Shown here one piece after another: positions 26,345 to 44,676 of a stretch of 64,000 nucleotides of DNA. Made by a program: the position numbers and the translations under genes. The DNA lies in contig CAZEPL010000008.1 in the NCBI GenBank assembly GCA_964514135.1, forward strand, positions 5,701-69,700, written 5' to 3'. Origin of the DNA: an uncultured Spirochaetaceae bacterium. Its GTDB lineage: Bacteria > Spirochaetota > Spirochaetia > SZUA-6 > RPPD01. The notes below the pieces were generated by a model that made no database searches, was not told the DNA's origin, and worked only from the letters and a program-made list of their open reading frames with translations. The number at the start of each line of letters is the position of its first letter. Position 1 is the stretch's first letter.

Positions 26345-26356
26345 GGGGAAAAGACT

Positions 26357-27724: not shown

Positions 27725-27743
27725 GGATATATAATCGTGTAGC

Positions 27744-27941
27744 ATGATAGAAGTAACAAAGCTTGACGGAAAGATTTATTATTTAAATCCGCATCATATA
27801 GAATATATTGAGTGTAATCCGGATACGACATTGGTTATGCTTTCAGGAAGACGACTGGTGGTTAAAGATGACTACCAGTCTATTTTTAAGCGGATAATCG
27901 AGTATAGAAGACTTATCGGCGCCTTTAAAAACGAGGAGTAA
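27744..27941 (+). CDS. flbD: Flagellar protein FlbD
   Basis: 65 aa. MIEVTKLDGKIYYLNPHHIEYIE... is the classic FlbD signature. Position between flgE and motA. Confidence 0.85.
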   Translation: MIEVTKLDGKIYYLNPHHIEYIECNPDTTLVMLSGRRLVVKDDYQSIFKRIIEYRRLIGAFKNEE

Positions 27942-27946
27942 GTGGT

Positions 27947-28729
27947 ATGGATCTTGGAACAATATTAGGTGTAATTGCAGGTATCTTATTGGTTGCGTTC
28001 GGTATACTGGTTATGGGGGCCTCGCTTACCACATACATCGATCCGGCATCGGTTCTCATTACTTTCGGAGGATCATTGGCAGCTATTATGATATCTAATC
28101 CGCTGTCAAGGACGTTGGGAATATTCAGATACGTACGCCAGACCTTGAGCATACCAAGCTGGGAAGAAGAACGCATTATCTCCCGCCTGGTCGCTTTTTC
28201 GGAAAAAGCACGAAGAGACGGCCTGCTTGCTTTGGAAGATGATCTGGATGAGGTTGAAGATGAATTCTTACGCAAAGGCATTCAGCTGGTTGTTGACGGA
28301 ACGGACCCGGAGATAATTAAAAATGTTTTGTATAACGAGCTGAGTAAAATACAGGAACGTCACGGAATCGGGATAAAAGTATTTGAAGATTGGGGTAAAC
28401 TGGCGCCTGCATTCGGAATGATCGGAACACTTATCGGTCTTATCTCCATTATGGGAAATATTGAAGATAAATCCGCTATCGGTCCCGGTATGGCCACGGC
28501 ACTGCTTACCACATTATACGGAGCCTTGTTTGCCAACTTGATTCTTATTCCTATTGCTAATAAATTAGAAGATAGGGATATCGCAGAGAGCCTGATAAAA
28601 GAGATTATGATCGAAGGTATACTTTCCATTCAGCAGGGTGATAATCCGAGAATTCTTGAAGAAAAGCTCATCGCTTTTCTTCCTCCGGCTCGAAGAGAAG
28701 CTATTAAACAGGAATCAGGAAGGGATTAG
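27947..28729 (+). CDS. motA: Flagellar motor stator protein MotA
   Basis: Four TM helices and a conserved C-terminal helix region (GPGMATALLTTLYGALFANLILIPIANKL). Confidence 0.92.
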   Translation: MDLGTILGVIAGILLVAFGILVMGASLTTYIDPASVLITFGGSLAAIMISNPLSRTLGIFRYVRQTLSIPSWEEERIISRLVAFSEKARRDGLLALEDDLDEVEDEFLRKGIQLVVDGTDPEIIKNVLYNELSKIQERHGIGIKVFEDWGKLAPAFGMIGTLIGLISIMGNIEDKSAIGPGMATALLTTLYGALFANLILIPIANKLEDRDIAESLIKEIMIEGILSIQQGDNPRILEEKLIAFLPPARREAIKQESGRD

Positions 28730-28740
28730 GAGAAACAAAC

Positions 28741-29469
28741 ATGCCGTTTAAAAGAAAGAAAAAAGCAAAAGGAGAGGGTTCACCGTATTGGATGATTACC
28801 TATGGCGATATGACAACGCTTTTACTGGTTTTTTTCGTGGTTATGTTTACCACAGCCGAGATTGACGGAAGCGAACTGCGTATGATTTTAGCTGCATTTC
28901 AAGGATTGGGCGTGATGAGGGGAGGTAATACCCTTCAGGTCGGTAAACTGGCGGAACTCGGCAATAACATCATGACTCTGCCCTCGGTAGAAAGAGGAAG
29001 AGCACTGGATAAGGCACGTAAATTAGCCAAATCCATCTTCGAACCGGAGATATCGGTTCGTAAAGTAAGGTTGAAAGAAGACGAACGAGGGTTAATAATT
29101 TCACTCTCTGCAGAGCTGTTTTTTGATCCGGCGAGTGCGGTGCTGAAAATTGAAGAAGCCAGGCCCATACTTTATAAGGTAAGGGATCTCCTGCTTTCCG
29201 AAGATGTTCGTGATAAAAAAGTAAGAATAGAGGGACATACGGATGATATAAAAATGGCTCCCGATTCCGAGTTCACTACTAATTGGGATCTTTCCGCAGC
29301 ACGCAGTCTCGAGGTACTGAAGTATTTAATAGAATACGGAGTGAACGAACAAAATATGCAGGTGGCGGGTTATGCCGATACGGTCCCGGTTTCGAATAAC
29401 AGTACGGAAGAGGGCAGAGCGGATAATCGAAGGGTGGATATTGTAATATTAACAGAGGGCCATTTATAG
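28741..29469 (+). CDS. motB: Flagellar motor stator protein MotB (OmpA-like C-terminal domain)
   Basis: N-terminal TM helix with the conserved Asp (WMITYGDMTTLLLVFFVV). OmpA-like peptidoglycan-binding C-terminus (NWDLSAARSLEV...NRRVDIVI). Confidence 0.92.
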   Translation: MPFKRKKKAKGEGSPYWMITYGDMTTLLLVFFVVMFTTAEIDGSELRMILAAFQGLGVMRGGNTLQVGKLAELGNNIMTLPSVERGRALDKARKLAKSIFEPEISVRKVRLKEDERGLIISLSAELFFDPASAVLKIEEARPILYKVRDLLLSEDVRDKKVRIEGHTDDIKMAPDSEFTTNWDLSAARSLEVLKYLIEYGVNEQNMQVAGYADTVPVSNNSTEEGRADNRRVDIVILTEGHL

Positions 29470-29501
29470 AACGGCAGTTTAAAAATAAATTATTAAGTAT
29501 T

Positions 29502-29538
29502 GAGCTTTTTGCAAAAATGTTATTTTTGCAAAAAGCTC
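29502..29538. repeat. Perfect 16-bp-arm inverted repeat (GAGCTTTTTGCAAAAA-N5-TTTTTGCAAAAAGCTC) between motB and fliL
   Basis: Read directly from the sequence. Arms 29502-29517 and 29523-29538, loop TGTTA. No mismatches. Confidence 0.8.
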
Positions 29539-29570
29539 CTAATATTATATGAAGATAGAGAGGTGAGAAA

Positions 29571-30128
29571 ATGGCTGATGAAGATCGTTTTTTAGACAGC
29601 GAAGCCGATCAAGCGACCGAAGAGGTTGAAGTTGGCCGGAAAGTTGGTTTTGTTCCCGCTCTGGTATTAAAGGCCTTAAAATGGGCAGCTATCGGAATTA
29701 TCGTGGTATTACTCGTCATTATTGTGGCCTATTTAACAGTAGAAATTGCCATGCAGGGCAGGGTGCCGGCACAGGATTTACCTCCTGTATCCCAGCAGAT
29801 CGCCGCATCAACTGAGATCTATCAGATCTATAAGAATCTAAAACCGTTAAGAGGACAGACATCGGATAATCCGCCATATATTTATACGGCGGAAATACAT
29901 ATCGCTTATGAAAAAGGTAATAATGCCATGACTACAGAGATTAATGAAAGAGATTCGCAAATACATAATCTTATTTTGAAAATATTGGGCAGCAAAAAAT
30001 CGAGTGAGCTTAATACCAATGATTTTAGTTTACTGGAAAGGGATATTACCTATAGTCTGAATCAAATTATGCGAAGCGGGAAAATAAAGGCTATATTTAT
30101 TCAGGAGATGCAGACTTTTCCACAGTAA
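29571..30128 (+). CDS. fliL: Flagellar basal body-associated protein FliL
   Basis: 185 aa. Single TM helix (IGIIVVLLVIIVAYL). Position between motB and fliM. Confidence 0.75.
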   Translation: MADEDRFLDSEADQATEEVEVGRKVGFVPALVLKALKWAAIGIIVVLLVIIVAYLTVEIAMQGRVPAQDLPPVSQQIAASTEIYQIYKNLKPLRGQTSDNPPYIYTAEIHIAYEKGNNAMTTEINERDSQIHNLILKILGSKKSSELNTNDFSLLERDITYSLNQIMRSGKIKAIFIQEMQTFPQ

Positions 30129-30190
30129 GAGTAATGATAAACACTTTGCTTAAAATAAAAAAAGTTGTATAATGGAATAAGAGGATGTAG

Positions 30191-31216
30191 ATGACTGAAG
30201 TTCTCTCTCAAGATGAAATAGATCAACTGCTTTCGGCCATATCATCAGGAGAAGTGGAAACCCCTGACACACAGGCCATGCCTGCTCAGCGCAATATCAA
30301 AATCTATGATTTTAAAAGACCGGATAAATTCTCCAAAGATCAAATACGAACCGTCTCCATTATGCATGAGACCTTCGCCAGACTTACCACCACATCGCTT
30401 TCGGCACAACTAAGAAGTCTGGTGCATGTGCATGTCGCCTCTGTAGATCAGCTTACCTACGAGGAGTTTATACGATCTATTCCCAATCCCACTACTCTGG
30501 CTGTGATTAATATGGATCCGCTTAAAGGCTCGGCCATACTTGAAATCGATCCTTCGGTTACATTTTCCATAATTGACAGACTTTTTGGGGGACAGGGCGA
30601 AGAAACAAAACTATCGAGAGATCTTACTGATATCGAGCAATCGGTCATGGAAGGAATAATTGTGCGGATATTGGGCAATATGCGTGAAGCCTGGAGCACG
30701 GTTATTGATTTAAGGCCCCGCTTAGGACAGATTGAAACAAATCCACAATTCGCACAGATTGTACCTCCTACCGAAATGGTGGTACTTGTGACACTTGAGA
30801 CGAAAGTCGGGGATGTAGACGGGCTTATGAATTTTTGCATTCCGTACCTGACTATCGAACCGATTATCTCGAAATTATCCGCGCAATACTGGTATTCTTC
30901 TGTACGGCGAGGGACTACAACCGAGAACCTGAATATTTTGAGAGAACGTCTGGAAACGGTGAGCGTGAATATAGTGGCGGAGATAGGCAGCATGATGCTC
31001 AAAGTAAAAGATGTGTTGGCTTTAAAAAAAGGGGATGTGATACGGCTGCCCAATGTGAGAATAAACGATCCTATGGGTTTGAAAATAGGAGATAGAAAGA
31101 AATTTTTATGCAGACCGGGAATAGTTGGTAATAAAACGGCGATTCAAGTTATAAAGAAGCTTGAAGAAACAAAACCCGAAGAGTTTGAAGAACTTAAAGT
31201 AGAAGGGGAGGAGTAA
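30191..31216 (+). CDS. fliM: Flagellar motor switch protein FliM
   Basis: N-terminal LSQDEIDQLL CheY-binding motif, CheC-like middle domain, C-terminal SpoA-like domain. Confidence 0.93.
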   Translation: MTEVLSQDEIDQLLSAISSGEVETPDTQAMPAQRNIKIYDFKRPDKFSKDQIRTVSIMHETFARLTTTSLSAQLRSLVHVHVASVDQLTYEEFIRSIPNPTTLAVINMDPLKGSAILEIDPSVTFSIIDRLFGGQGEETKLSRDLTDIEQSVMEGIIVRILGNMREAWSTVIDLRPRLGQIETNPQFAQIVPPTEMVVLVTLETKVGDVDGLMNFCIPYLTIEPIISKLSAQYWYSSVRRGTTTENLNILRERLETVSVNIVAEIGSMMLKVKDVLALKKGDVIRLPNVRINDPMGLKIGDRKKFLCRPGIVGNKTAIQVIKKLEETKPEEFEELKVEGEE

Positions 31217-31218
31217 GT

Positions 31219-32337
31219 ATGAGTGAAGGCTATCTTTCGCAAGATGAAATAGATGCTCTGTTGCAGGGTACGGAAGAAATAACCGACGCAAAAGACTTAA
31301 GCAGCGGCGGTCCGCTTGCAGCAAATGAAAAAAATGTGTTTAAATCAATAATTCAAAGTACGATTGAATCGCAAAGCTCAAACATATCTATGGTTACCGG
31401 TAAATCGGTTATAATCGGGGCACCGAGTATAGAAGTAAAATCAAAACAACAATTGCTCGCCGAACTGATGAATGAAGTCGTGGAAGTGAAGATTGATTTT
31501 ACAGACGGAATTGTGGGCGAGCATTCATATCTGCTTGTACCGGATTTCGCAACAAAACTGGCGGGTTATATCATGGGACAGTCGGGAGTCGAGCTCAACG
31601 AAGCCGCACTGTCAGGTGTGGCTGAAGCGATTTCCAATATTGTAGGCGCAATTGCCACAACTTTGGGCAATCAGATAAATCAAACAGTAATGATATCAAG
31701 TGCACAGTGTGCTAAGGTAAAAAAAGAGAAAATAAAATTTCCGCCTGGTGATAATTTAATAAAAGTAGAATATCCAATTTCGATTGAGGGAGAAAAACCT
31801 GCAACTCTTATTGAGTTGTTTGCATTGTCCTCGGTCAAAGAAGTCGTAGCACGATCGACCGGTAACGGGATGGCGACAGGTCAGCCAGTCGCTGCGGGCA
31901 GTAAAAAGGGTGGAAAAGGAGATGTTATGTCACAAGGAATGTCAAATATCACGGGAGGTGACTCAGGGCAGGGAGGCGATCAATCGATTCTTGATGGATT
32001 AAACAGCATGATGCCAAATCCCAATGTACAGTCAGTTCAACTGCCTAATCTGCAGACATCGCAGGCATCACAAGAACAGAGTAACATCGGATTACTTATG
32101 GATGTATATATGGAGATGACTGTAGAGTTGGGAAGAACCAAGAAGCTTATTCGCGATATTCTGGGTATCGGTGAAGGAACAATCATCGAATTGGATAAAT
32201 TAGCAGGGGAACCTGTAGATATACTGGTAAATCATAAGTTGATTGCCAAAGGTGAAGTGGTAGTTATTGATGAAAACTTCGGTGTACGTGTAACTGAAAT
32301 TGTATCACCATTGGAGAGGATGGCGGATCTCAAATAA
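31219..32337 (+). CDS. fliY: Flagellar motor switch protein FliY (CheC-like N-domain plus FliN C-domain)
   Basis: N-terminal LSQDEIDALL, CheC-like phosphatase-type domain, Q/G/S-rich linker, C-terminal FliN/SpoA domain (GEVVVIDENFGVRVTEIV). Confidence 0.9.
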   Translation: MSEGYLSQDEIDALLQGTEEITDAKDLSSGGPLAANEKNVFKSIIQSTIESQSSNISMVTGKSVIIGAPSIEVKSKQQLLAELMNEVVEVKIDFTDGIVGEHSYLLVPDFATKLAGYIMGQSGVELNEAALSGVAEAISNIVGAIATTLGNQINQTVMISSAQCAKVKKEKIKFPPGDNLIKVEYPISIEGEKPATLIELFALSSVKEVVARSTGNGMATGQPVAAGSKKGGKGDVMSQGMSNITGGDSGQGGDQSILDGLNSMMPNPNVQSVQLPNLQTSQASQEQSNIGLLMDVYMEMTVELGRTKKLIRDILGIGEGTIIELDKLAGEPVDILVNHKLIAKGEVVVIDENFGVRVTEIVSPLERMADLK

Positions 32338-32353
32338 AAAAGTACAATATAGT

Positions 32354-32382
32354 TGACAGAAATTATTTTACATGCCATAATT
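32354..32382 (+). promoter_or_regulatory. Internal sigma-70-type promoter (TTGACA-N17-CATAAT) ahead of fliZ/fliO-fliPQR-flhBAFG
   Basis: TTGACA at 32354-32359, a 17-nt spacer, CATAAT at 32377-32382. Sits in a 150-bp non-coding gap, unusual within this tightly packed operon. Confidence 0.5.
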
Positions 32383-32489
32383 AAAAAAAGTAATTAAAAA
32401 TATTAGTTTTTAGTATCGGGAGGGGAAAACTGAAAACTACATCTCTTTTATTAACAATAATATTAATAACATTAGTAACATGCTCGGTA

Positions 32490-33020
32490 ATGTATGCGCA
32501 AGAACAACAGGATATTCTTAGCGAAGACTATGCAGCCTCGGATCAGGCTGATACACAAACCGGCCCGGCAGTACAGCAAATGGAACCGATTGGTCCTTCT
32601 TTTTGGGATTATCTTTCCATGGTACTGGGCCTCGGGGTTGTGGTCGTTATAATCGTTGTGATATTTTATGCAATTAAAAGGGGCATTAATAAAAAAATAG
32701 TTCAAAACGAATTGATAAAGATATTGGGTTCAAAAATAGTAACCGGAAATAAGGTGCTCCATTTAATTGAAGTGGGAAATGCGGTGTACTTAATCGCTTC
32801 TTCAAATGAAGGTATCTCTTTGATTTCAGAGGTTTCAGATAAAGAGACAAAGGATACTATAAAATTGAAAGCAAGCCAACGCCCTGAAAATCCGGTAAAA
32901 GGATTCGGTGATCTTATTGTAGGTTTTTTAAACCGTAAAAGTCAAAAAAAACAGGTTATTGACCACAGTATAAATTTTATGAAGGAACAAAGGAGCAGAT
33001 TGCATAAGATGAATAAGTAA
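32490..33020 (+). CDS. fliO: Flagellar biosynthesis protein FliO/FliZ
   Basis: Single TM helix (LSMVLGLGVVVVIIVVIFYAI) and FliO-family C-terminal region. The in-frame sequence upstream of the first ATG encodes a signal-peptide-like segment, so the true start is probably near 32430 (CTG after the GGGAGGGG RBS). Confidence 0.7.
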   Translation: MYAQEQQDILSEDYAASDQADTQTGPAVQQMEPIGPSFWDYLSMVLGLGVVVVIIVVIFYAIKRGINKKIVQNELIKILGSKIVTGNKVLHLIEVGNAVYLIASSNEGISLISEVSDKETKDTIKLKASQRPENPVKGFGDLIVGFLNRKSQKKQVIDHSINFMKEQRSRLHKMNK

Positions 33021-33049
33021 AAAATAGAATTGAAATCCTGGGAGGGGAC

Positions 33050-33811
33050 ATGAAAAAAATTATCGTGCTGATTGTACTTGTTATCTGCTGCAGTACAGTC
33101 GGTATATCTGCGCAAGAAGATGCAAATATAAATATTCCCTATTTTGATATCGGTATACGAAATGCCGCTAACAATGAAGAAGTTGCTTTGTCACTGCAGC
33201 TTCTCTTACTGCTGTCAATAATCACTATTGCTCCATCAATTATTGTACTCACAACAGCGTTTTTAAGGATTGCCATCGTTTTTAATTTCATAAACAGATC
33301 GCTTTCATTGCAAAACGTCCCTCCTACCCATGTGCTTATGGGGATTGCTCTCTTTTTAACATTTTTTATTATGTGGCCTACCTTCAGCGCAGTATATGAA
33401 ACCGCGTTTAAGCCTTTTGCCGATGGAACTATCGGAATTGAAAAAATGTATGAGAATGCTGAACAGCCGGTTAAAACGTTTATGTGGAAGCAGTTGGGAA
33501 GGGATTATAAGAATGTCGAGTTGTTTTTAAAGTTAGGTAATTACCCGAAACCTAAAACCAAGGGAGATGTACCCATTCATGTACTCATACCGGCATTTAT
33601 CCTTAATGAATTGGGTATCGCTTTTAAAATTGGCATAATGCTGTTTATTCCTTTCATTGTTATCGATATGGTCATTGCATCGACATTAATGTCAATGGGA
33701 ATGATCATGCTCCCGCCGATTATGATTTCGTTACCTTTCAAACTCATTCTCTTTGTACTGGTTGACGGCTGGAGTCTGATTACAATGCAGTTGGTAAAAA
33801 GCTTTATGTGA
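33050..33811 (+). CDS. fliP: Flagellar type III export apparatus protein FliP
   Basis: Signal peptide plus conserved FliP TM regions (LQLLLLLSIITIAPSIIVLTTAFLRIAIV...). Confidence 0.95.
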   Translation: MKKIIVLIVLVICCSTVGISAQEDANINIPYFDIGIRNAANNEEVALSLQLLLLLSIITIAPSIIVLTTAFLRIAIVFNFINRSLSLQNVPPTHVLMGIALFLTFFIMWPTFSAVYETAFKPFADGTIGIEKMYENAEQPVKTFMWKQLGRDYKNVELFLKLGNYPKPKTKGDVPIHVLIPAFILNELGIAFKIGIMLFIPFIVIDMVIASTLMSMGMIMLPPIMISLPFKLILFVLVDGWSLITMQLVKSFM

Positions 33812-33852
33812 CCGCAAACGCCATACGTATGAGCGTACTATAAGGAGGAATT

Positions 33853-34122
33853 ATGAGCTTAGGCATGGCAGTAAATCTTTTGAGGGGCGGGGTTCTGCAG
33901 GTGCTTGTAATAGCATCTCCAATTTTGCTTATTGGAATGCTTACCGGCTTAATTATTTCTATTATTCAGGCTACCACAAGCATTCAGGAACAGACTCTCA
34001 CTTTTGTTCCCAAGATAGCTGCTATTTTGGGAGCAGTCATAATTTTTGGACCGTGGATAATCTCATCAATGGTACAGTTTACCATCAGGTTGTTTCAACA
34101 GATATCTGCTATACCGGGATAA
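33853..34122 (+). CDS. fliQ: Flagellar type III export apparatus protein FliQ
   Basis: 89 aa, two TM helices. Canonical FliQ sequence (LLIGMLTGLIISIIQATTSIQEQTLTFVPKI). Confidence 0.93.
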   Translation: MSLGMAVNLLRGGVLQVLVIASPILLIGMLTGLIISIIQATTSIQEQTLTFVPKIAAILGAVIIFGPWIISSMVQFTIRLFQQISAIPG

Positions 34123-34194
34123 CGGAGGAAGACAATAGAAATATATCTGGTACAGTTTCAAATATTTCTTTTAATATTCGTAAGGATTACAGCT

Positions 34195-34920
34195 ATGGTA
34201 CATGTAGCTCCGTTGCTGTCTTCCAGTGCCATACCTGAGGTTGCAAAAATAGGTCTTTCGCTTTTTACTTCCTTGGCCGTTTTTCCGTGGGTGTATGCTA
34301 TGGGTTTTGAGATGCCTGCCAATATTATCGATTATTTTTTGCTGATTGTAGGAGAAATGTTTATAGGCATTATCATTGGTTTTTTCTTGGCAATCATTTA
34401 TGTCGCATTTCAAGTTGCGGGGAAATTTTTTTCACTGCAAATGGGATTCGGAGCTTCATCTGTATTTGATCCTCTGGCACAAATAGAAGTTCCGCTGATG
34501 GGCCAGCTGTTAAATATAATCGGGATGTTTGCCTTTATTTCCATAGGAGGTTTTCAGAAAATATTTTTAATCGGAGTTTACAAATCATTTAAATCGATAA
34601 GAGCGGTTGATCTGGTAAACGGGAAGCCGTTCCTGCTGAAATTATTTATGGGCAGTTTGGGTAAATTGTTTGACAGTGCGATTACCATCGCCTTTCCCAT
34701 CCTGGGAACACTCTTTATCGTTTCGGTGTGTATGGGACTGCTGGCAAAAGCAGCCCCGCAGATGAACCTGCTTATGTTGGGTTTTCCGATTGCAATCGGG
34801 GTAGCCTTTCTTATTTTGTTTTTCAGTATACCGTTTCTGGTTGAGGCGTGTGCCGGGCTTATCGACTCAAGCTTCAGGCAATTAATAAATATTTATCAAG
34901 GTATTACAGGCGGAGGATAA
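34195..34920 (+). CDS. fliR: Flagellar type III export apparatus protein FliR
   Basis: Polytopic FliR. The in-frame upstream sequence (IYLVQFQIFLLIFVRITAMV) matches the conserved FliR N-terminus. The true start is therefore probably near 34135-34147, a non-ATG codon after the GGAGGA RBS. Confidence 0.85.
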   Translation: MVHVAPLLSSSAIPEVAKIGLSLFTSLAVFPWVYAMGFEMPANIIDYFLLIVGEMFIGIIIGFFLAIIYVAFQVAGKFFSLQMGFGASSVFDPLAQIEVPLMGQLLNIIGMFAFISIGGFQKIFLIGVYKSFKSIRAVDLVNGKPFLLKLFMGSLGKLFDSAITIAFPILGTLFIVSVCMGLLAKAAPQMNLLMLGFPIAIGVAFLILFFSIPFLVEACAGLIDSSFRQLINIYQGITGGG

Positions 34921-36074
34921 TGGCGAGCGAACTATTGTTTTACACATACAGATTGAATAAGCTGCCGCCAGAACTGATCTCTGTGCATTTGCAGTGGTTT
35001 GCCGCAGAAGATGAAGGACGCACAGAAGAACCAACAGAGCATAAAATACGGAAGGCCAGAGAAGAAGGTAGGGTTGTAAAATCTGCTGAGTTTAGTTCAG
35101 CGCTCATTCTGCTTGTGGGAATAGGGGCGCTTGCACTGCTTGCCACCTATATGTTGGAAACATTTTTAGCTATGATAAGATATTTTTTAGTAAACTCATA
35201 TAAAATAGATATAACAACTAATGCGATTAGCGTACAAGCTGTTTTCAGCTTTTTAATTCGACTTACGCTGCCTGTTGTGGCTGTGGTGTTTATTACCGCA
35301 CTTATGAGTAATTTACTGCAAGTAGGTTTTTTATTTACGGTAAAACCCATAACACCGGATTTTACCAAGATTATACCCAAATTCGGTAAATTCTTTAAGA
35401 GAGCAATGTTTTCTGCAGAAGCGGGATTCAATTTATTCAAATCGCTTATTAAAGTTGTATTGGTGGCAATTTTAGCATTCTTAAATATACAGGCGGAACT
35501 GCCAAAGATAATGAATCTGCTTAAAGTGCATTTCTTCAACGGTGTTGAGCTTATTTCTTCAGTGGTTTTCAGAATAATTTTTGAAGCTGGTATTTTACTG
35601 TTAATGCTCTCTGTATTGGATTACATGTTTCAAAAAAGACTGCACAGAGAGCGTTTAAAAATGTCGCGCCAGGAGCTGAAAGAAGAAAGAAGAATGTACG
35701 AAGGCGATCCACTGGTGAAAAGCAGGTTGCGTGAACGTATGCGCGAGATAATGACCAGAAATATGCTGCAGGCTGTGCCCAAGGCTGATGTGGTAATTAC
35801 CAACCCCACGCATTTTGCTGTTGCCTTGGAATGGGAACGCTTAATCATGGCTGCCCCGACGCTTGTGGCCAAGGGTGCTGATATGATAGCGCATAAAATT
35901 AAAGAGATTGCACTGGAGAACGAGGTTCCCGTCGTGGAAAATAAACCGCTTGCTCAAGCCTTATATGATGAAGTTGAAATCGGAGAAATAATTCCTGAAA
36001 AATATTATGAAGTAATCGCCACAATACTGGCTGAGATTTATAAACTTAAAGGAGTTAGCAAAGAGGTGATTTAG
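34920..36074 (+). CDS. flhB: Flagellar type III export apparatus switch protein FlhB
   Basis: N-terminal EEGRTEEPTEHKIRKAREEGRVVKS. Four TM helices. NPTH autocleavage motif (VITNPTHFAVAL). Start overlaps the fliR stop (taATG). Confidence 0.95.
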   Translation: MASELLFYTYRLNKLPPELISVHLQWFAAEDEGRTEEPTEHKIRKAREEGRVVKSAEFSSALILLVGIGALALLATYMLETFLAMIRYFLVNSYKIDITTNAISVQAVFSFLIRLTLPVVAVVFITALMSNLLQVGFLFTVKPITPDFTKIIPKFGKFFKRAMFSAEAGFNLFKSLIKVVLVAILAFLNIQAELPKIMNLLKVHFFNGVELISSVVFRIIFEAGILLLMLSVLDYMFQKRLHRERLKMSRQELKEERRMYEGDPLVKSRLRERMREIMTRNMLQAVPKADVVITNPTHFAVALEWERLIMAAPTLVAKGADMIAHKIKEIALENEVPVVENKPLAQALYDEVEIGEIIPEKYYEVIATILAEIYKLKGVSKEVI

Positions 36075-36114
36075 CATGAATATATACAAGATAAAAACTG
36101 TATGGAGTAACTAA

Positions 36115-38202
36115 ATGGCAGATATGCAACGGGTATTCGGGTATTTAACTAAAAGAAAAAGCGATCTTGCCATAGCAGCAGGTGTAATTACTATTGTACT
36201 GATGCTGCTTATTCCGCTTCCCGAATTCATTCTCGATACATTCATGTCCGTAAACCTGGTAATAAGCTTATTGGTCATACTCATAGTCTTATTTTCCAAG
36301 AAGGTCCTTGATTTTTCCGTGTTCCCGACCGCTCTGCTTATTTTAACAGTGTACGGACTGGCACTTAATGTTTCTTCTACCAGATTGATTTTAGCTAAGG
36401 GGAAGGAATTTCAGGGTCAGATTGTTAGAGCGTTTGGAGCCTTTGTCACAGGATCTGAGCACGAGTTTACCGGTTATGTGATCGGTCTCATTATCTTTAT
36501 TGTGATTATTGCGGTTCAGTTTATCGTCATAACAAAGGGTTCAACTCGGGTTGCAGAAGTAGCAGCACGTTTTACTTTGGATGCCCTGCCAGGAAAGCAG
36601 ATGGCTGTTGAAGCTGAATATAATTCGGGTTTAATTACGGAAGAAGAGGCAATCAGAAGAAAGCATGAAATCCAGCGTGAAGTTGACTTTTACGGAGCAA
36701 TGGATGGTGCTTCAAAATTTGTTTCCGGTAATGTTAAAGTTGGAATCCTCATCACGTTGATTAATATGATAGGTGGTCTCATTGTCGGCATGACGATACA
36801 TGGTGAAACCTGGTCGGAAGCTGTTAATACCTATATTTCACTCACTATAGGCGACGGTCTGGCAGCACAGCTGCCGGTTCTCTTAATATCTACCGCGACC
36901 GGTATTGTTGTAACAAGAGCGGTGTCGGACGCCAGCTTCGGAACGGATGTGACATCACAGTTCTCAAGTCAATCAAAACCATTTTTAATCGGTATGGTAT
37001 TTTTAATTCTGATGGGTTTTTTACCGGGCTTCCCCTGGTATTTATTATGGCCGATGGGCGCACTGTTTGGATTTTTGGCATATACTCTTTCAAAAAATAT
37101 GATGGTCAAAGAAGAGAAGGTAAAGCTAAAAGAAGCCTCGGAACAAGAAAGAAAGCTGCCTGCGGAAATATCACCGGTAGTACCATTGGATCCTCTGTCG
37201 CTGGAGTTGGGCTATGGTCTTATTCCGTTAGTGGATAAGGAGCATGGGGCGGAACTGTTGGATAGGATAACACGAATTAGAAGGGAAGCTGCCTTGGATC
37301 TGGGGCTTGTGGTGCCGCGGATTCGTATCATAGATAATATGCGTCTCGATCCGCCCGAGTACTGCTTTAAAATCAAGGGTGTTGAGGTGGGGAGAGGAAA
37401 GATCAGAATGGGACGCTATCTGGCAATTAATCCAAGCGGAGAAAAGGAAGAACTGCCGGGAGAAAAAACACATGATCCGACATTTGGGCTTCCGGCTGTT
37501 TGGATTTCGGAGGAGCATAGAGATAAGGCTGAGCAGTTGGGTTATACCGTAGTAGACCCGCCGTCAATAATAGCGACACATCTTACTGAAATTATAAAAC
37601 AGCATGCTGAAGAATTATTAGGCAGACAAGAAGTACAATCGATTATGGATGCATTACGTGCTGATTATCCTGCTGTTGTGGAAGAGGTTGTAAAGACACT
37701 GTTAGTCGGTGAAATACAAAAAGTCCTGCAGGGATTATTAAAGGAACAGGTATCGATAAGGAATATTGTGGTCATACTGGAGACTCTGGCGGATTTCGGC
37801 CCGGTTACAAAAGATTTAAGCTATCTGACAGAAAAAGCCCGTCAGGCTTTGGGACGTCAGATATGTTTTCAGTATGCAGATGAAAACAGAATATTACGAG
37901 TGCTGACGATTGATCCTGATGTAGAGAAAAGAATTATTGATTCGCGGGTTGAAACAGGCAAGGGTTTAACTGCTGCTTTGGAACCCGCTCTGCAGCGTAA
38001 GTGGATAAATTCATGTCATAATTTCATAAAAAGTGTACAAGAACAGGGATATCTGCCTATAATCCTCTGTTCGGAAGCCGCACGGCCCTTGGTTAAAGAC
38101 AGTACAAAACGTGAGCTACCGCAGCTGGCGGTAATGTCTGTGCCGGAAATAGTTACGGAAGTAACTGTAGAATCTTTGGGATCAATATCAATAAATGAGT
38201 AA
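36115..38202 (+). CDS. flhA: Flagellar type III export apparatus protein FlhA
   Basis: 695 aa. N-terminal TM domain and large cytoplasmic FlhA-C domain. Confidence 0.96.
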   Translation: MADMQRVFGYLTKRKSDLAIAAGVITIVLMLLIPLPEFILDTFMSVNLVISLLVILIVLFSKKVLDFSVFPTALLILTVYGLALNVSSTRLILAKGKEFQGQIVRAFGAFVTGSEHEFTGYVIGLIIFIVIIAVQFIVITKGSTRVAEVAARFTLDALPGKQMAVEAEYNSGLITEEEAIRRKHEIQREVDFYGAMDGASKFVSGNVKVGILITLINMIGGLIVGMTIHGETWSEAVNTYISLTIGDGLAAQLPVLLISTATGIVVTRAVSDASFGTDVTSQFSSQSKPFLIGMVFLILMGFLPGFPWYLLWPMGALFGFLAYTLSKNMMVKEEKVKLKEASEQERKLPAEISPVVPLDPLSLELGYGLIPLVDKEHGAELLDRITRIRREAALDLGLVVPRIRIIDNMRLDPPEYCFKIKGVEVGRGKIRMGRYLAINPSGEKEELPGEKTHDPTFGLPAVWISEEHRDKAEQLGYTVVDPPSIIATHLTEIIKQHAEELLGRQEVQSIMDALRADYPAVVEEVVKTLLVGEIQKVLQGLLKEQVSIRNIVVILETLADFGPVTKDLSYLTEKARQALGRQICFQYADENRILRVLTIDPDVEKRIIDSRVETGKGLTAALEPALQRKWINSCHNFIKSVQEQGYLPIILCSEAARPLVKDSTKRELPQLAVMSVPEIVTEVTVESLGSISINE

Positions 38203-38212
38203 GGGAGATACT

Positions 38213-39394
38213 ATGCAATATTTTACCATACAAGCAAAATCGCATAGAGAGGCAATCGATAAGATGAGAATACAACATGGTGAGAATGGGAAAATACTTA
38301 CCTATCGTAATATTCGTTTGGGCGGATTTTTAGGCTTGTTTTCAAAAGACGGAGTAGAGATTACAGGCTATGTTTCTGAAAAAAACCATAAACAGAATAA
38401 TATTCAAAACGAAAAAATGAAAGTATTGGAGACGGCAAAAAAAGAACAAACACTCAACTATATACTTAAAGAATTAAAGGAATTGAAGTATGGTATCGGT
38501 AAGTCGATAGGAATACAGCAACAAGATCCGCCGGCAATTAAAAGAGTAAAGGAAATATTGTTGGAAAACGATTTTTCTTTGGAATACATCGGGCAGATAA
38601 CCGATAAGATGTGCAATAGATTTTCTATGATGGAGTTAGAAAATATAAATAAAATACAGGGTGATCTGATTGATTGGATTGCAGAGAGTGTTTCCATATA
38701 TGATGTTGATGAACAGAATGCTAAAAAACCCAAAATAATAACTGTAATAGGACCTACGGGAGTTGGCAAAACCACAACTGTTGCCAAACTGGCTGCACTT
38801 TATGGGTTAGAAAATAACGGGAAAAAGCCCTTAAATGTGAGGATAATTACTATTGATAATTATAGAATAGGAGCAAAACAGCAAATTGAGACATATGGTA
38901 ATATCATGCGTATTCCGGTATCTTTTGCAGAAACGCCCTCGGATTTAAAAAAACTGATTGCTCTGTATAATGATATTGATATAATTTTGATTGATACGAT
39001 TGGTAAAAGCCAAAAAGATTATAAAAAATTAGCGGAAATGAAAGAATTATTGGACTATTGCGGGAGTAAAACGATTACGATATTGGCGGTAAGTGCAACA
39101 ACAAAATGTAAAGATCTTGAAGAAATATTTCAGCAGTATGAACCGTTTAAATATGTTTCTATAATTATAACCAAGCTTGACGAGACTTCACAAATAGGTA
39201 ATATCATAAGTGTTATAGCTAAAAAGAAGAAATCGATTTCTTTTGTTACAGACGGTCAGAAAGTGCCGCAGGATATTGAAAAAGCTTCAATCCTGCGCTT
39301 TTTGCTGCAACTGGAAGGATTGCATATAAATCGCGAGTATTTAGAAAAAAAGTATGGTAAAAGAGAAAATGTTTTAAATGAGGTGTGGAGCTAA
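38213..39394 (+). CDS. flhF: Flagellar biosynthesis GTPase FlhF (SRP-type)
   Basis: SRP-GTPase G domain (VIGPTGVGKTTTVAKLAA). The ATG at 38213 has a well-spaced RBS (AAGGGAG); the ORF-track start at 38195 overlaps the flhA end. Confidence 0.9.
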   Translation: MQYFTIQAKSHREAIDKMRIQHGENGKILTYRNIRLGGFLGLFSKDGVEITGYVSEKNHKQNNIQNEKMKVLETAKKEQTLNYILKELKELKYGIGKSIGIQQQDPPAIKRVKEILLENDFSLEYIGQITDKMCNRFSMMELENINKIQGDLIDWIAESVSIYDVDEQNAKKPKIITVIGPTGVGKTTTVAKLAALYGLENNGKKPLNVRIITIDNYRIGAKQQIETYGNIMRIPVSFAETPSDLKKLIALYNDIDIILIDTIGKSQKDYKKLAEMKELLDYCGSKTITILAVSATTKCKDLEEIFQQYEPFKYVSIIITKLDETSQIGNIISVIAKKKKSISFVTDGQKVPQDIEKASILRFLLQLEGLHINREYLEKKYGKRENVLNEVWS

Positions 39395-39397
39395 GGT

Positions 39398-40255
39398 GTG
39401 GCTGATCAGGCAGAAAAACTCAGAGAATTAATGCAGAACCGAAAAGAAGATACTCGCTTGAATACACGAATTATAGCAGTCTCAAGCGGAAAAGGCGGTG
39501 TAGGAAAGACAAATATTGCCATAAATTTAGCTCTGTCGTATGCGGAATTGGGTAAAAAAGTAACCGTGATGGATGCGGATCTGGGGCTGGCTAATGTCAA
39601 TGTTGTACTGGGAGTTATTCCAAAGTATAATCTGTACCACGTAATAAGACAGCAGAAAAAAATGAAAGATATCATTATGGACACAAGTTACGGGATTAAA
39701 ATTGTAGCCGGTGCATCAGGTTTTTCCAAAATTGCAAATCTTTCCGAAGATGAAAGAAAGATATTTATACAGGAATTGGATGAACTTGCCAATGCGGATA
39801 TCATAATTATCGATACAGGTGCGGGAGTATCAAATAACGTCATTTCTTTTATCGCTGCTGCAGATGATGTTATTATTGTTACTACACCGGAACCCACGGC
39901 TATCACAGACGCCTACGGTATTATAAAGATTATTGCAACAGAAATAGAAAATATTGATTTAGGATTGAAATTAGTAGTAAACAGGGTGAATTCAGTAACT
40001 GAAGGCAAAAAGGTAGCTCAGCGAGTAATTTCAATCGCGAATAATTTCTTGAATATAAAAGTAGATTATCTCGGTTTTATATATAACGATAAATTGGTTC
40101 ATAATGCTGTAATAAAGCAAAAACCGTTTTTTTCAATCGATCCTCACAGCAAAGCTTCAATATGCATTAAACATATAATTAGCAGATTAGAAAATATCGA
40201 TTATCGTGAAGGCAGCGGTATTTCACGTTTTTTAAAAAAGCTTTTTGGTAATTAA
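39398..40255 (+). CDS. flhG: Flagellar number regulator FlhG/YlxH (MinD-like ATPase)
   Basis: GTG start. Deviant Walker A ([18 protein letters not shown]). MinD/ParA fold. Confidence 0.9.
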
Positions 40256-40267
40256 GTTCTTACCCGC

Positions 40268-40296
40268 TTGACGGTAAAGGCTTTTTCTCATAATCT
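40268..40296 (+). promoter_or_regulatory. Candidate sigma-70-type promoter (TTGACG-N17-TAATCT) ahead of the acidic-protein/fliA cassette
   Basis: TTGACG at 40268-40273, a 17-nt spacer, TAATCT at 40291-40296. Confidence 0.3.
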
Positions 40297-40326
40297 TTTA
40301 TTAAGGAGTGGTGGGAGATAAAATAT

Positions 40327-41166
40327 ATGATACGCTGGAATATAGCGGTATACTCAGGTTTAGGAGCTTTTTGTTTATCATTTATTATAGGAATATTGAG
40401 CGGGAATCCTTTTCTTGCTATTCTTTTTCGTGCTTTTATATTCGGTGTTATATTTGCAGGGATGGGAGCTGCGGGGAGCTTTATAATAAATAAGTTTTTA
40501 CCTGAAATATTTAATGCTGATTATAAACAGACAGCAGAAGCAACTAATAGTAAAAATGTTGATATCGTGCTTCCGGAAGAGAATCCTGTTTTAGGTGAAT
40601 CTTTATTTGAAGAAAAAGAAAAAAGTGGTGATGAGATTATTGAAGATGTTGACATGGCAGAAGAGCTGGAGACCGCAGAAGAGATTGAAGCAACTGATGG
40701 TATTGATGAGTATGAAGATGTTGATGCGGATGAGAATATAAATCAATATGAAGAGCCGGAAGAACAGGAAGAAGAAGTAACAGCAGAGGAAAAACTTGAA
40801 AACGGTTATGATAATATTGTCGTAGAAGAAATGGATCATGATAAAAATGAAAATATAGATGTAACGGATAAGACAAATCAAAAAAATCAGCTTCAGGAGC
40901 AGGCAGTTCAGGCTCCGGAAAGCGCTGAAGCAAGCTCTGAAAAAATAGCCGACGAAGAATTGGATGAGCTTCCGGATATGGGGGTATTGGAAAATTCATT
41001 TATGGTAATAAGCAGTGATGAGGGCTCAGAAAATAATCCTCTCGCCGGAGTAAAGTCACAACTTTCCGGTAAAATAACAAAAAAAGAAGATCCGGCGGTA
41101 TATGCACAAGCAGTGCGTACAATCATAAAAAGAGATGAGGAAGGACCAAAAAAATATGGCCGATGA
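40327..41166 (+). CDS. Hypothetical membrane protein: two N-terminal TM helices plus a long highly acidic (E/D-rich) low-complexity tail
   Basis: [24 protein letters not shown]...[24 protein letters not shown], then about 200 aa that are extremely E/D-rich. The 3' end overlaps the fliA start by 11 nt. Confidence 0.6.
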
Positions 41167-41944
41167 ACTTTTTAAAAAAAAGTCAGAGGAAGAGCTTTGG
41201 AGATCTTATAGAAAGAAAAAAGATCCCAAGATACGTGATTTCTTTGTTAAACAATATGCACCATTAGTAAAATATGTTGCAGGTAAAGTTGCCATAGGAA
41301 TGCCTCAAAATGTGGAGTTTGATGATCTGGTCGGTTATGGAGTATTCGGTTTGTTTGATGCGATAGAGAAATTCGATCCTGAAAAGCATGTAAAATTTAA
41401 GACATATGCCGTAACGCGAATTCGTGGATCTATCTTTGATGAATTGAGATCTATCGACTGGGTTCCCAGATCAGTAAGGCAAAAGACGAGAGAAGTAGAA
41501 GATACAATTTCTCACTTAGAAGGACAATTAGGAAGATCTGCTTCTGATAATGAAATTGCAAAGGCCTTAAATCTTACTATAGACGATTATCAAAATCTTA
41601 TGCTTAAAATCAGTGGTACCTCAATAATGTCGATTCATGATGTCTGGTATACCGGAGAGGATAATGATAAAATATCCATTGCAGAAAGCATAGAATCACC
41701 CTCAAGTCTTAATCCTGATACGATTGTAGAAAAAAACGAAATTAAGCGTGTTATTATTGAAGTTATTAATGAGCTTCCGGAAAAAGAGAAAAAAGTTCTT
41801 GTCCTTTACTATTATGAAGACTTAACTTTAAAGGAGATAGGTGAAGTACTCGATGTAACCGAATCGAGAGTATCACAGTTGCATACTAAGGCGATATTGC
41901 GCTTAAGAGCAAAACTTACGAGCTTAAAGAAGGGTATAATGTAA
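41156..41944 (+). CDS. fliA: Flagellar RNA polymerase sigma factor FliA (sigma-28/WhiG family)
   Basis: Region 2 ([37 protein letters not shown]). Region 4 HTH ([25 protein letters not shown]). Confidence 0.92.
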
Positions 41945-41945
41945 A

Positions 41946-43895
41946 GTGATTAAAATAGATCAATTAAGAAAATATATGAAAACACTCTATGAAAAAGATA
42001 AAAAAAATAAAACCATACATGCAAAAGGAAAAACTTTAGACGATGCATTACGCGAAGCGGCTATTCAATTGGGATTACCAATAAAAAAGATAGAGTATGA
42101 AATTATCAAAAGAGGTACTAAAAAAGTACTCGGTATGGGCGGCGGAGAATGGGAACTTGTTGCTTATGCTGCAGCAGAAGACCTGGATGCAAAAGATATA
42201 TTTGAAGAAGAGATTGCTTTTGATATGAATCTCAAATCAGAATATCTTGAGAAGGCTAAAAATAAAGACGGCAAAATAAGTGTCCGCCTGCAGCCGGACG
42301 GTGTCTTTTTAAAAGTAAACAAACCTATAGGCAGCGGGAAAAAAGCAAATATTGCAGCTGCTAAAAATATAATTATGAAAAGAAATATCACAAGTTATGA
42401 CGAAGCGCTTGTCGATAAAGTTGTACGCTATGCAGACGATAAGTATGTTAAAATTGCCAATTTTGAATACAATCCCGGTCAAGATCCCGTTCTTTCGGTG
42501 AGTATTGCAGATATGGAGATGAAAGCTTTTTTACTTTTACAGGCACCGGGACCTGGTGGTGCAGATTTAGCCGCGGAAACAATAAAGGGTTATCTAAACA
42601 ATAATAGAGTTGTTTTCGGAATTAAAGAAGAGGTGCTAAGGAGTTTGCAAGAAAATCCTGTTTATAATGAAGAAATCCTGGTTGCCGAAGGTCAGAAACA
42701 AGCCAACGGAAACGATGCAAAACTAGTTTATAATTTCAAGACTGATCATACGACTATTATTTTTAAGGAAAAAAACGGTCGTGTGGATTTTAAGGACCTT
42801 AATTTAATTGAGAATGTAGTTGCCGGTCAGCAGTTGGCAAAAAAAGTACCGCCGGAACGCGGCAAAGAAGGACAGACAGTTACGGGAAAAACATTACCTG
42901 CAAAGCCCGGTAAAGATAGTACAATCGGAGTGGGAAAAAATGTAAAACTCTCGGAAGATGGAACGACAGTAATATCGGAAATCAACGGTCAGGTAATCCT
43001 CCTTAATGGAAAATTAAACGTAGAGCCCGTATACACAGTCCCGGGAGATGTAAATCTTCATACCGGTAATATTTTATTCTTGGGTACGGTTATAGTACGC
43101 GGAAATGTTGAAGACGGATTTTCAGTAAAAGCTGCGGGAAATATAGAGGTAATGGGGAATATCGGAAAAGCAATGCTTGATGCGGAAGGAGATATTATTG
43201 TACACCAAGGTATACTGGGCAAGAATGAAGGTAAAGTAAAATGTGGAAAAAATATATATGCAAAATTTATTGAGCATGCTTATGTTGAGGCAGAGAATAA
43301 TGTAATTGTAACCGATGGAATACTGCATTCATATGTCGATTCAAATAAAAAAATAATCTGTCAAGGAAGAAGAGCTTCGATTGTTGGAGGGAGACTACGG
43401 GCAGCAGAAGAAATTAATGCCAAAAACCTAGGATCGGTTGCAGGTGCTGAGACTATTTTAGAAGTAGGATATGATCCGAAAAGTAAGAAAAGACTCATAG
43501 AACTGCAGTCACAGAATGAGATATTAAGTAAAGAATTGGAAGAAATCGAGAGAAATGTAAACACATTAGAGAATCTAAAGAAGGTACAAAAAACACTACC
43601 GGAAGAAAAAGAGAAATATCTTATAGAACTCAATGAAAAGCGTATGAAAATATTATCGGAAATGAAAGAGATAAAGAACCAGATTGATGAAATAAAACAT
43701 CACCTCGCATCGCTTAAAGTGAAAGGTAAAATATCAGCCTCTGAAAGAGTATTCCCCGGAGTGAAGATATATCTTAAAGATGTTATGGATAAAGTTCGTG
43801 TAGAACAAAAATCGGTTACCTATATATTAGAGGGTAAGCGTATAAGGATGACAAAATATGAGCCTGTAGAAGGAGAATACTTGAGGAAAAGATAA
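41946..43895 (+). CDS. FapA/DUF342-family protein (Jag-N-like N-terminal domain, beta-helical repeat core, C-terminal coiled coil)
   Basis: GTG start 2 nt after the fliA stop. N-terminal KTLDDALREAAIQLGLPIKKIEYEII (Jag_N-like). Repetitive GN-rich beta-solenoid segment (GNILFLGTVIVRGNVEDGFSVKAAGNIEVMGNIG...). Coiled-coil tail. Confidence 0.65.
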   Translation: MIKIDQLRKYMKTLYEKDKKNKTIHAKGKTLDDALREAAIQLGLPIKKIEYEIIKRGTKKVLGMGGGEWELVAYAAAEDLDAKDIFEEEIAFDMNLKSEYLEKAKNKDGKISVRLQPDGVFLKVNKPIGSGKKANIAAAKNIIMKRNITSYDEALVDKVVRYADDKYVKIANFEYNPGQDPVLSVSIADMEMKAFLLLQAPGPGGADLAAETIKGYLNNNRVVFGIKEEVLRSLQENPVYNEEILVAEGQKQANGNDAKLVYNFKTDHTTIIFKEKNGRVDFKDLNLIENVVAGQQLAKKVPPERGKEGQTVTGKTLPAKPGKDSTIGVGKNVKLSEDGTTVISEINGQVILLNGKLNVEPVYTVPGDVNLHTGNILFLGTVIVRGNVEDGFSVKAAGNIEVMGNIGKAMLDAEGDIIVHQGILGKNEGKVKCGKNIYAKFIEHAYVEAENNVIVTDGILHSYVDSNKKIICQGRRASIVGGRLRAAEEINAKNLGSVAGAETILEVGYDPKSKKRLIELQSQNEILSKELEEIERNVNTLENLKKVQKTLPEEKEKYLIELNEKRMKILSEMKEIKNQIDEIKHHLASLKVKGKISASERVFPGVKIYLKDVMDKVRVEQKSVTYILEGKRIRMTKYEPVEGEYLRKR

Positions 43896-44216
43896 ATGTC
43901 TATTCTGCCCATTGACCTCCAGATTCTTTTCTCTCAGATGAATCAAGTGGGAAAAGAGCAGGCCATACAGAAAGATGGCAATGCAATTCATCAGTCACTT
44001 CAGGGGATGGAGCTGGTAAAAAATACCGAGCAGAAAGATAGTTCTGTAAATCAAAGTAAAGATATCGGCGAAGGCTTAGAAAAAATAAAGAATGAAGAAA
44101 ACAAAAAGAAGGAAGAGCGGGAAAGAGAAAAAAATGAAAAAAAAGAACAAGCAGAGCATAAAAAAACAGTATTTGCAGATCCTGATTTAGGTAAGCATAT
44201 TGATATAATGGGATAA
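43896..44216 (+). CDS. Hypothetical small K/E-rich protein
   Basis: 106 aa. ATG directly abuts the FapA stop. Highly charged (NEENKKKEEREREKNEKKEQAEHKK). No recognisable motif. Confidence 0.45.
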   Translation: MSILPIDLQILFSQMNQVGKEQAIQKDGNAIHQSLQGMELVKNTEQKDSSVNQSKDIGEGLEKIKNEENKKKEEREREKNEKKEQAEHKKTVFADPDLGKHIDIMG

Positions 44217-44226
44217 TAAACATTTT

Positions 44227-44676
44227 ATGGAATCCTTTCTTTTTATTATAGCATGTCAGTTGATCAGTTTTTTATTACTCTATATTTTTTTAAAGCGCAA
44301 ACTCGATAAGCAATATTCGAAACAGGGTCAAATTGAAAGCATTGAACATGAAGTTGAAAAGATAATTATCGAGTTAAATCAAACAACAGCACGTAATATA
44401 GGATTGATTGAAAATAAGTTAAAAGAAATCGAAGCACTGATGGGTACCACGGACAAAAGACTGAATATTCTTAGGCGTGAAAGCGAGAAGCATGATTTAA
44501 GTAAAAAAGTATATAATAATCTTATGGAAAGCAGTAATCAACATAAGAACAGGAACATCAAAGATGAAGTAATCAGACTCTATTCCAGCGGCTTTCCATC
44601 CGAGATGATTGCCAATCAGTTAGGAGCTTCAGTCGGAGAAGTTGAGCTTATTATATCCTTAGCAGAGAAAAAGTAA
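44227..44676 (+). CDS. Hypothetical single-pass membrane protein with coiled coil and C-terminal HTH-like segment (positional analog of B. subtilis SwrB)
   Basis: N-terminal TM helix (FLFIIACQLISFLLLYIFL), a coiled coil, and a C-terminal DEVIRLYSSGFPSEMIANQLGASVGEVELIISLA segment. Confidence 0.5.
   Translation: MESFLFIIACQLISFLLLYIFLKRKLDKQYSKQGQIESIEHEVEKIIIELNQTTARNIGLIENKLKEIEALMGTTDKRLNILRRESEKHDLSKKVYNNLMESSNQHKNRNIKDEVIRLYSSGFPSEMIANQLGASVGEVELIISLAEKK

Follow-up and report, generated by a model that had tools for sequence, protein, structure and literature searches.

A flgV–fliA–fapA cassette, very probably of an already described type, at the 3' end of a flagellar superoperon in an uncultured Spirochaetales bacterium

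Introduction

The gene neighborhood FlhF/FlhG – FlgV – sigma-28 – FapA – YjfB – TM+HTH, in which the last protein combines a transmembrane (TM) segment with a helix-turn-helix (HTH), has been described across phyla (Zamba-Campero et al., 2024; PMC11607428). A locus of this kind is characterized here in a 64,000-nt stretch of DNA, hereafter the window (contig CAZEPL010000008.1 of assembly GCA_964514135.1, positions 5,701 to 69,700), where flhG is followed by a cassette of five genes: flgV, fliA (encoding sigma-28), fapA, and two genes for proteins of 106 and 149 amino acids, named p106 and p149. The host is an uncultured Spirochaetales bacterium represented by a metagenome and is not demonstrably a Treponema.

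Type-1 FlgV, the class of BB0268 from Borrelia burgdorferi, is defined by features that include two TM helices, a conserved intramembrane arginine in TM2, and a polar tail that is disordered and varies in length (Zamba-Campero et al., 2024; PMC11607428). In B. burgdorferi, FlgV is located at the MS/C-ring junction and controls the number and length of filaments. The flgV and sigma-28 genes are co-conserved across phyla; Borrelia has lost sigma-28 yet keeps flgV and fapA, and deletion of flgV there has a filament phenotype (PMC11607428).

SwrB of Bacillus subtilis is a described, if distant, relative of the last protein. It acts post-transcriptionally in flagellar type III secretion through FliP, FliF, and FliG (PMC4526659) and was stated to be conserved only in Bacillus (Phillips et al., 2015; PMC4526659). 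Its N-out/C-in topology has been shown experimentally, its residue H13 is functionally important, and mutation of L155 abolishes its function (PMC4526659; bioRxiv 10.1101/2021.04.30.442225).

The region studied here is very probably the 3' end of a flgB-type flagellar superoperon that carries this known sub-module, arranged as flgV – fliA (sigma-28) – fapA – a small protein at the YjfB position – a TM+HTH protein of the DUF6115/SwrB family. The original prediction for this DNA had suggested that the genes around fliA could form an undescribed module, but the same neighborhood was already in print (PMC11607428). The locus agrees with the published module in how the genes are ordered, in lying at the 3' end of the superoperon, and in the architecture of each protein; what differs is the new host, an uncultured Spirochaetales bacterium, and the small protein, which has no match to the Pfam family YjfB_motility. 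The cassette is thus the already published module and largely ordinary, with two modest extras, namely the link of its last protein to DUF6115 and SwrB and a promoter-like motif 5' of flgV. In the consulted text of PMC11607428, SwrB has 0 occurrences, the corresponding neighbor is called only 'TM+HTH', and no conserved promoter motif before flgV is described.

Gene order and junctions of the cassette

All five genes lie on the + strand, with flgV at 40327..41166 (279 amino acids), fliA at 41156..41944 (262 amino acids), fapA at 41946..43895 (649 amino acids), p106 at 43896..44216, and p149 at 44227..44676. Gene calls made independently on a public metagenome contig of identical sequence (L001) agree with the open reading frames (ORFs) as predicted, including the start of fliA at 41156.

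The junctions are short throughout the cassette. Taking the fliA start as ATG 41156, which has GAGGAAGG just before it and gives 262 amino acids, the median length of the orthologs, the flgV stop TGA (41164-41166) falls 11 nt inside fliA; an alternative fliA ATG is present upstream at 41135. The fliA stop TAA (41942-41944) is separated by one nucleotide from the GTG start of fapA (41946), the fapA stop TAA (43893-43895) abuts the ATG of p106 (43896), and the p106 stop (44214-44216) is followed after a 10-nt gap by the ATG of p149 (44227). The overlap and the two near-zero junctions on either side of fapA can be read from the sequence just as the original prediction gave them. The next gene, ffh, begins after 81 nt (44677-44757). 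The sole junction of the cassette that is not tight is the one from flhG to flgV, which measures 71 nt here (40256-40326), has a median of 70 nt in relatives, and is never 10 nt or shorter.

For the comparison of gene order, one genome per species was scanned for the p149 family with family-specific peptide patterns, giving 178 relatives, from which 80 loci were kept. All 80 are from metagenome-assembled genomes of Spirochaetales; Treponema, Borrelia, and Firmicutes were outside the reach of the scan. The order flhA-flhF-flhG-flgV-fliA-fapA-p106-p149 was held in every locus of sufficient length across the 80 genomes. Sixty-six loci include flgV, and it lies between flhG and fliA in every one of them, while ffh comes next after p149 only in the closest relatives. 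The median gaps over 62-78 related loci are 7 nt from flgV to fliA, 8 nt from fliA to fapA, 0 nt from fapA to p106, and 9 nt from p106 to p149, so the tight spacing is not a local accident. Gaps or overlaps of 0-10 nt would favor translational coupling and co-expression of the five genes. The view of this region as a conserved, tightly coupled flagellar cassette centered on fliA is therefore borne out by the synteny of all informative loci.

The acidic two-TM protein is FlgV

The 279-aa protein encoded upstream of fliA has an isoelectric point of 4.05 and a net charge of -44. It contains a single hydrophobic block (residues 5-55) that is split by GNP and fits two TM helices, followed by a region (residues 66-279) with 64 D/E and 19 K/R, the composition of which suggests a disordered tail. 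Composition and hydrophobicity also fit the earlier descriptions of this protein as acidic with two TM helices, of p106 as K/E-rich, and of p149 as a single-pass membrane protein. A database search with the acidic protein returned only seven relatives, none of them named.

Its identity was established by comparison with B. burgdorferi FlgV (BB0268), for which 136 of the 159 residues were rebuilt from the synthetic gene and the primers in Supplementary Data 1 of PMC11607428. The family profile of the window protein aligned to BB0268 in hhalign at 95.7% (E 9e-9) over 61 gap-free columns spanning both TM helices, placing R35 of the window protein on R38 of BB0268, and BLASTP gave E 2e-6. FliQ and FliO, two membrane proteins of the same window used as negative controls, scored only 0.3% in hhalign, so the FlgV match is not an artefact of hydrophobicity. 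In an alignment of 44 orthologs with BB0268, the retained features are R35 (at least 90% of the 45 sequences), LPE(L) after TM2, LPD, and a C-terminal peptide DPxxxAxAxRTxxKRD, while the acidic linker is unalignable and the orthologs range from 181 to 329 amino acids. No conserved acidic residue is seen in these 45 sequences at the presumed TM1-TM2 turn (SGNPF), and a Ser/Asn is found near the end of TM2.

The acidic two-TM protein is a type-1 FlgV. It resembles BB0268 in its two-TM hairpin, the arginine in TM2, the polar disordered tail, and a basic/hydrophobic C-terminal peptide (the end of BB0268, read from primers, is IKTLMSKKE), and the gene directly follows flhG in both genomes. It differs in length (279 versus 159 amino acids), having a much longer and strongly acidic tail, and in that flgV is followed here by fliA, which is absent in Borrelia. 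The original prediction held that none of these proteins had an established role in spirochetes; for FlgV, a role has been shown in B. burgdorferi (PMC11607428).

The FlgV proteins of this clade also carry two cytoplasmic motifs that are extra with respect to BB0268. The first, (N/V)(I/V)DIVLPEE, stands just after TM2 (residues 76-88; IDIVLPEE in the window), and the second, E(L/I)DxLPDMGxLE, stands before the C-terminal peptide (residues 208-222; ELDELPDMG). Both are candidate short linear binding motifs.

FliA and FapA

FliA matches the NCBIfam models TIGR02479 (FliA_WhiG; 292.6 bits, cut-off 189.6) and NF004935 (426.8 bits, cut-off 343), and the Pfam Sigma70 regions r2, r3, and r4 are all matched. 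FapA exceeds the Pfam cut-offs for both the FapA domain (PF03961; 264.8 bits, E 1.3e-78) and FapA_N (PF20250; 161.1 bits, E 2.3e-47). As judged by these family matches, the identities of both proteins are unambiguous.

The window FapA is strongly matched by the FapA_N and beta-solenoid domains of the Vibrio vulnificus FapA and the Pfam FapA (DUF342) family, but it has an additional N-terminal Jag_N domain before them (PF14804, E 2.4e-12; NCBIfam Jag/EloR, E 3e-6), at residues 27-69 (42024-42152). Jag_N is known elsewhere from Jag/EloR, an RNA-binding regulator of cell elongation, and the Vibrio FapA is known for polar localization and its control by glucose.

The small K/E-rich protein p106

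p106 stands where the published module has 'YjfB'. It is composed of a conserved N-terminus (MPLLPIDLQTLFSQxNQVGKEQA), a variable K/E-rich linker, and a conserved C-terminus (DPDLGxxIDIxG); a 38-residue segment in the middle of the protein is 63% K/E/R. AlphaFold2 predicts one long helix (residues 5-89), and 78 orthologs were found at the same position in related loci. The family is narrow, with about 300 matching cluster representatives among 1.84 billion, and nearly all of the 150 matches listed are 100-116 amino acids long.

The published label of YjfB was not reproduced for p106. The Pfam model YjfB_motility (PF14070) gave no match at E up to 10 in any of 46 family members, nor with three p106 constructs from which the linker had been deleted, while YjfB-like controls scored 62-81 bits. 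In hhalign, p106 and YjfB-like sequences align through the C-terminal motif only (DPDLGKHIDI to HPTLGKSIDI; 46-50% over 11-14 columns), so that PxLGxxIDI is all that is shared. Like the PF14070 proteins, p106 is a small protein in a flagellar context with a C-terminal PxLGxxIDI, but it is about twice as long, has the K/E-rich insert, and carries a different conserved N-terminus.

p149, DUF6115, and the relation to SwrB

p149 has one N-terminal TM segment (residues 1-24), and the KRK after this helix would give it the N-out/C-in topology found for SwrB. In its AlphaFold2 model (mean predicted local distance difference test, pLDDT, 83.9), the TM helix is followed by a helix of 70 residues and by a bundle of three helices at residues 111-148, which supports the C-terminal HTH-like segment that had been proposed for it. 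The sequence GEVELIISL near the C-terminus, located in the last helix, is invariant in the p149 family. In Pfam, p149 matches DUF6115 (PF19610) at 35.3 bits (cut-off 27), with residues 53-145 covering profile positions 41-133 of 134, and it weakly matches DUF2802. A search for solved DUF6115 structures found none, the sole match being a designed repeat protein, and no mention of DUF6115 was found in the literature searched.

DUF6115 is also the family of SwrB. A search with a SwrB query sequence retrieved database entries that bear the name SwrB and have 96-99% identity to it, and the conclusions rest on these entries. Proteins deposited in NCBI and UniRef as 'swarming motility protein SwrB' or 'DUF6115 domain-containing protein' carry PF19610, and DUF6115 was the best Pfam family for 18 of the 18 diverse SwrB-family proteins tested, members of which also weakly match HTH_7 and HTH_23. 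The p149 and SwrB family profiles align in hhalign at 93.7% (E 1.9e-7) with about 26% identity, and L155 of SwrB falls in the helix that is aligned with p149. Both proteins, of about 150-180 amino acids, begin with a single TM helix, continue with a helical linker, and end in an HTH-like domain, and each gene is the last of its flagellar operon, 3' of the sigma-28 gene; in B. subtilis the order is sigD-swrB-rpsB, and swrB closes the fla/che operon directly after sigD. The 'SwrB-like' label that the original prediction attached to p149 is supported as distant homology because the two share the DUF6115 family and align at the profile level. Such a link, drawn from sequence profiles, contradicts the stated confinement of SwrB to Bacillus. 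A literature search on SwrB together with spirochetes surfaced no paper with SwrB, which does not establish absence.

The likeness could also be one of generic TM-plus-HTH architecture only, with p149 being no functional equivalent of SwrB, a reading that appears rather unlikely, though it has several observations on its side. The hhalign alignment is confined to 43 C-terminal columns and the BLASTP match of p149 to SwrB to a 40-residue stretch, so that the identity of about 26-30% concerns the HTH only. SwrB of B. subtilis itself scores 26.1 bits against DUF6115 (residues 38-157 to profile positions 12-131), 0.9 bit under the cut-off. H13 in the TM helix is invariant in the SwrB alignment, whereas p149 has Q11, its relatives often have N, and no conserved histidine is present. 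In addition, p149 is set apart from fliA by fapA and p106, whereas in B. subtilis swrB abuts sigD. On the other hand, the DUF6115 match spans nearly the whole profile in both proteins, both have about 150-180 amino acids with the same domain order, and both are encoded by the last superoperon gene 3' of the sigma-28 gene.

The HTH fold of p149 raises the question of whether the protein binds DNA. In Foldseek, the three-helix bundle superposes at ~1 A on HTHs of LuxR/NarL/GerE, DeoR, LiaR, RcsB, and sigma region 4, with E-values of 0.26-1, which for so small a domain do not reach significance. If p149 were a membrane-tethered, DNA-binding regulator akin to ToxR/CadC, although with a C-terminal HTH, it would directly control flagellar genes rather than activate secretion. 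The superposition on the DNA-bound domains of NarL, DeoR, LiaR, and RcsB and the weak matches of SwrB-family members to HTH_7 and HTH_23 are consistent with such a role. However, the Foldseek scores carry no significance, the invariant GEVELIISL sits in the last helix with no DNA target known, and the reported action of SwrB is post-transcriptional, at the level of type III secretion (PMC4526659; bioRxiv 10.1101/2021.04.30.442225). A DNA-binding p149 is considered very unlikely.

Relation of the flanking proteins to sigma-28

The original prediction suggested that the proteins flanking FliA form a sigma-28 control module, for example with a membrane-tethered partner or an anti-sigma-like factor that binds FliA stoichiometrically. 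The tight coupling of the genes to fliA and the co-conservation of flgV with the sigma-28 gene across phyla (PMC11607428) are what such a module would show, and the resemblance of the p149 HTH fold to sigma region 4 and LuxR-type HTHs makes sigma-domain mimicry conceivable. FlgM-type anti-sigma-28 factors are, moreover, small and partly disordered proteins of the flagellar regulon, in which they resemble the cassette proteins. Nevertheless, a control module of this kind is highly improbable. None of the four flanking proteins matches a FlgM or anti-sigma family in Pfam or NCBIfam at E up to 1-10. FlgV is localized to the MS/C-ring junction (PMC11607428), and SwrB works via FliP, FliF, and FliG, not directly on SigD (PMC4526659). 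Borrelia also makes an anti-sigma role unlikely, since FlgV functions there in the absence of sigma-28; flgV and fapA are kept in it, and the deletion of flgV has a phenotype in the filaments (PMC11607428). The idea that the p149 HTH mimics region 4 of the organism's own sigma-28 was considered separately and rejected, with the p149 profile scoring 0.5% against the window FliA in hhalign. The idea of a membrane-tethered anti-sigma-like factor finds no support.

A promoter-like motif before flgV

The flhG→flgV spacer of the window contains TTGACG-N17-TAATCT at 40268..40296 on the + strand, and similar sites are conserved in the orthologous spacers. TTGAC is present in 60 of 66 spacers (shuffled sequences: mean 5.2, maximum 14), and the full TTGAC-N18-TAnnCT is present in 50 of the 66 (shuffled: mean 0.016, maximum 1), while it occurs only twice within the whole window. 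The consensus, TTGAC(G)-N17-TA(a/c)(t/g)CT, is located 42-61 nt before the flgV start in most loci. A T-tract occurs in its spacer, and the base two positions ahead of the TA is a conserved C. The motif would represent a sigma-70-type internal promoter for the five-gene cassette.

Other signals are scarce in the region. In a scan of 39300-45000, promoter-like sites inside the cassette were not enriched (24 versus 19.4 ± 4.4 in shuffled sequences), and terminator-like hairpins were few, all lying inside coding sequence or on the opposite strand. The sigma-28-type promoter pattern (TAAA-N14-16-CCGATA) is matched once in the window, which is the chance level, at a site distant from the cassette.

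Read by eye, the p149–ffh gap contains TTGACA at 44701-44706 and, after a spacing of 17 or 19 nt, TATATA/TATAAT, which suggests that ffh may have its own promoter. The scan of 39300-45000 gave no terminator-like hairpin between p149 and ffh.

The flagellar superoperon and its surroundings

The flgB-type superoperon extends over 17126..44676 (about 27 kb) with all genes on the + strand, as determined from Pfam matches of the upstream ORFs and from gene calls with Pfam on the identical contig. Its order is flgB, flgC, fliF, fliG, fliI, fliK-like, flgE, motA, motB, fliL, fliM, fliN, fliO, fliP, fliQ, fliR, flhB, flhA, flhF, flhG, and then the cassette. The four genes immediately upstream of the cassette, all called on the + strand and recognized through Pfam, are flhB (34920-36074; Bac_export_2), flhA (36115-38202; FHIPEP), flhF (38195 or 38213-39394; SRP54), and flhG (39398-40255; ParA/MinD-type).

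Up to about 38 kb, nearly all 2-kb bins have a G+C content of 0.40-0.43, the exceptions being 24-26 kb and 32-34 kb, where it dips to 0.38. From flhF onward it falls to 0.33-0.37 except for 0.41 at 56-58 kb; the cassette belongs to this lower-GC part. The GC skew is positive all along the superoperon. The cassette is followed by the genes ffh-rpsP-KH-rimM-trmD-rplS and then by a 338-aa ORF without a Pfam match. After it, about 5 kb 3' of the cassette, comes a stand-alone 80-aa protein consisting of the FlhB C-terminal domain (Bac_export_2), at about 49528-49770 (19202-19444 of contig L001), and next to it an HD_5/HD-domain protein, at about 49772-50896 (19446-20570 of L001).

Proposed working of the cassette

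Taken together with the published functions, the five genes would be transcribed by read-through from the superoperon and also from the conserved sigma-70-type promoter proposed upstream of flgV. FlgV, as shown in Borrelia and by extension here, would form a two-TM hairpin in a ring at the MS-ring/C-ring junction, with its tail and C-terminal peptide in the cytoplasm, and would modulate filament assembly. The DUF6115 protein, anchored by one TM helix with its HTH in the cytoplasm, may make it more likely that flagellar type III secretion is switched on by a basal body once it is complete, as has been shown for B. subtilis SwrB and is extended here by distant homology. FliA would then drive the late (filament) genes, with FapA and p106 probably serving as accessory assembly factors. 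The cassette would in this way bundle sigma-28 with membrane-proximal factors of the basal body and export gate, not with regulators of sigma-28 itself.

Several points weigh against the assignment of the locus to the published module and against the functions given to its parts. Conservation was demonstrated here inside Spirochaetales only, and wider conservation rests on PMC11607428. The functions are transferred from Borrelia for FlgV and from Bacillus for SwrB. To these are added the YjfB label that p106 did not reproduce and the three limits of the SwrB comparison given above, namely the sub-threshold DUF6115 score of B. subtilis SwrB, the restriction of the profile alignment to the C-terminal columns, and the TM histidine missing from p149. 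With respect to the promoter, the -10-like TAatCT is atypical, a conserved C at position 5 being unusual for sigma-70, and a generic sigma-70 scan of 39300-45000 did not list the flhG→flgV motif. The assignment to the published module is nonetheless considered very probable.

A farther-reaching possibility is that the DUF6115 protein ending spirochete superoperons is a true functional counterpart of SwrB. Licensing of the SwrB type, in which completion of the basal body switches on type III secretion, would then be ancient and widespread, and the protein would be co-expressed with FlgV and sigma-28 from the conserved internal promoter as one late-assembly checkpoint cassette. This is proposed tentatively, as an idea that may well prove wrong.

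Significance

As a locus, the region adds little, being one more instance of a module known from comparative genomics and Borrelia genetics. Its interest lies in the 'TM+HTH' gene of that module, which shares a Pfam family with SwrB, a protein held in the SwrB papers to be confined to Bacillus. If the SwrB link is true, the genetics of B. subtilis, with its suppressors in FliP, FliG, and FliF, would become relevant to a so far unstudied gene found in spirochetes, pathogens among them. The promoter-like motif before flgV suggests, in addition, that sigma-28 and its four neighbors may be expressible independently of the rest of the 27-kb superoperon, and such independent expression of the cassette would bear on the timing of late flagellar assembly in spirochetes.

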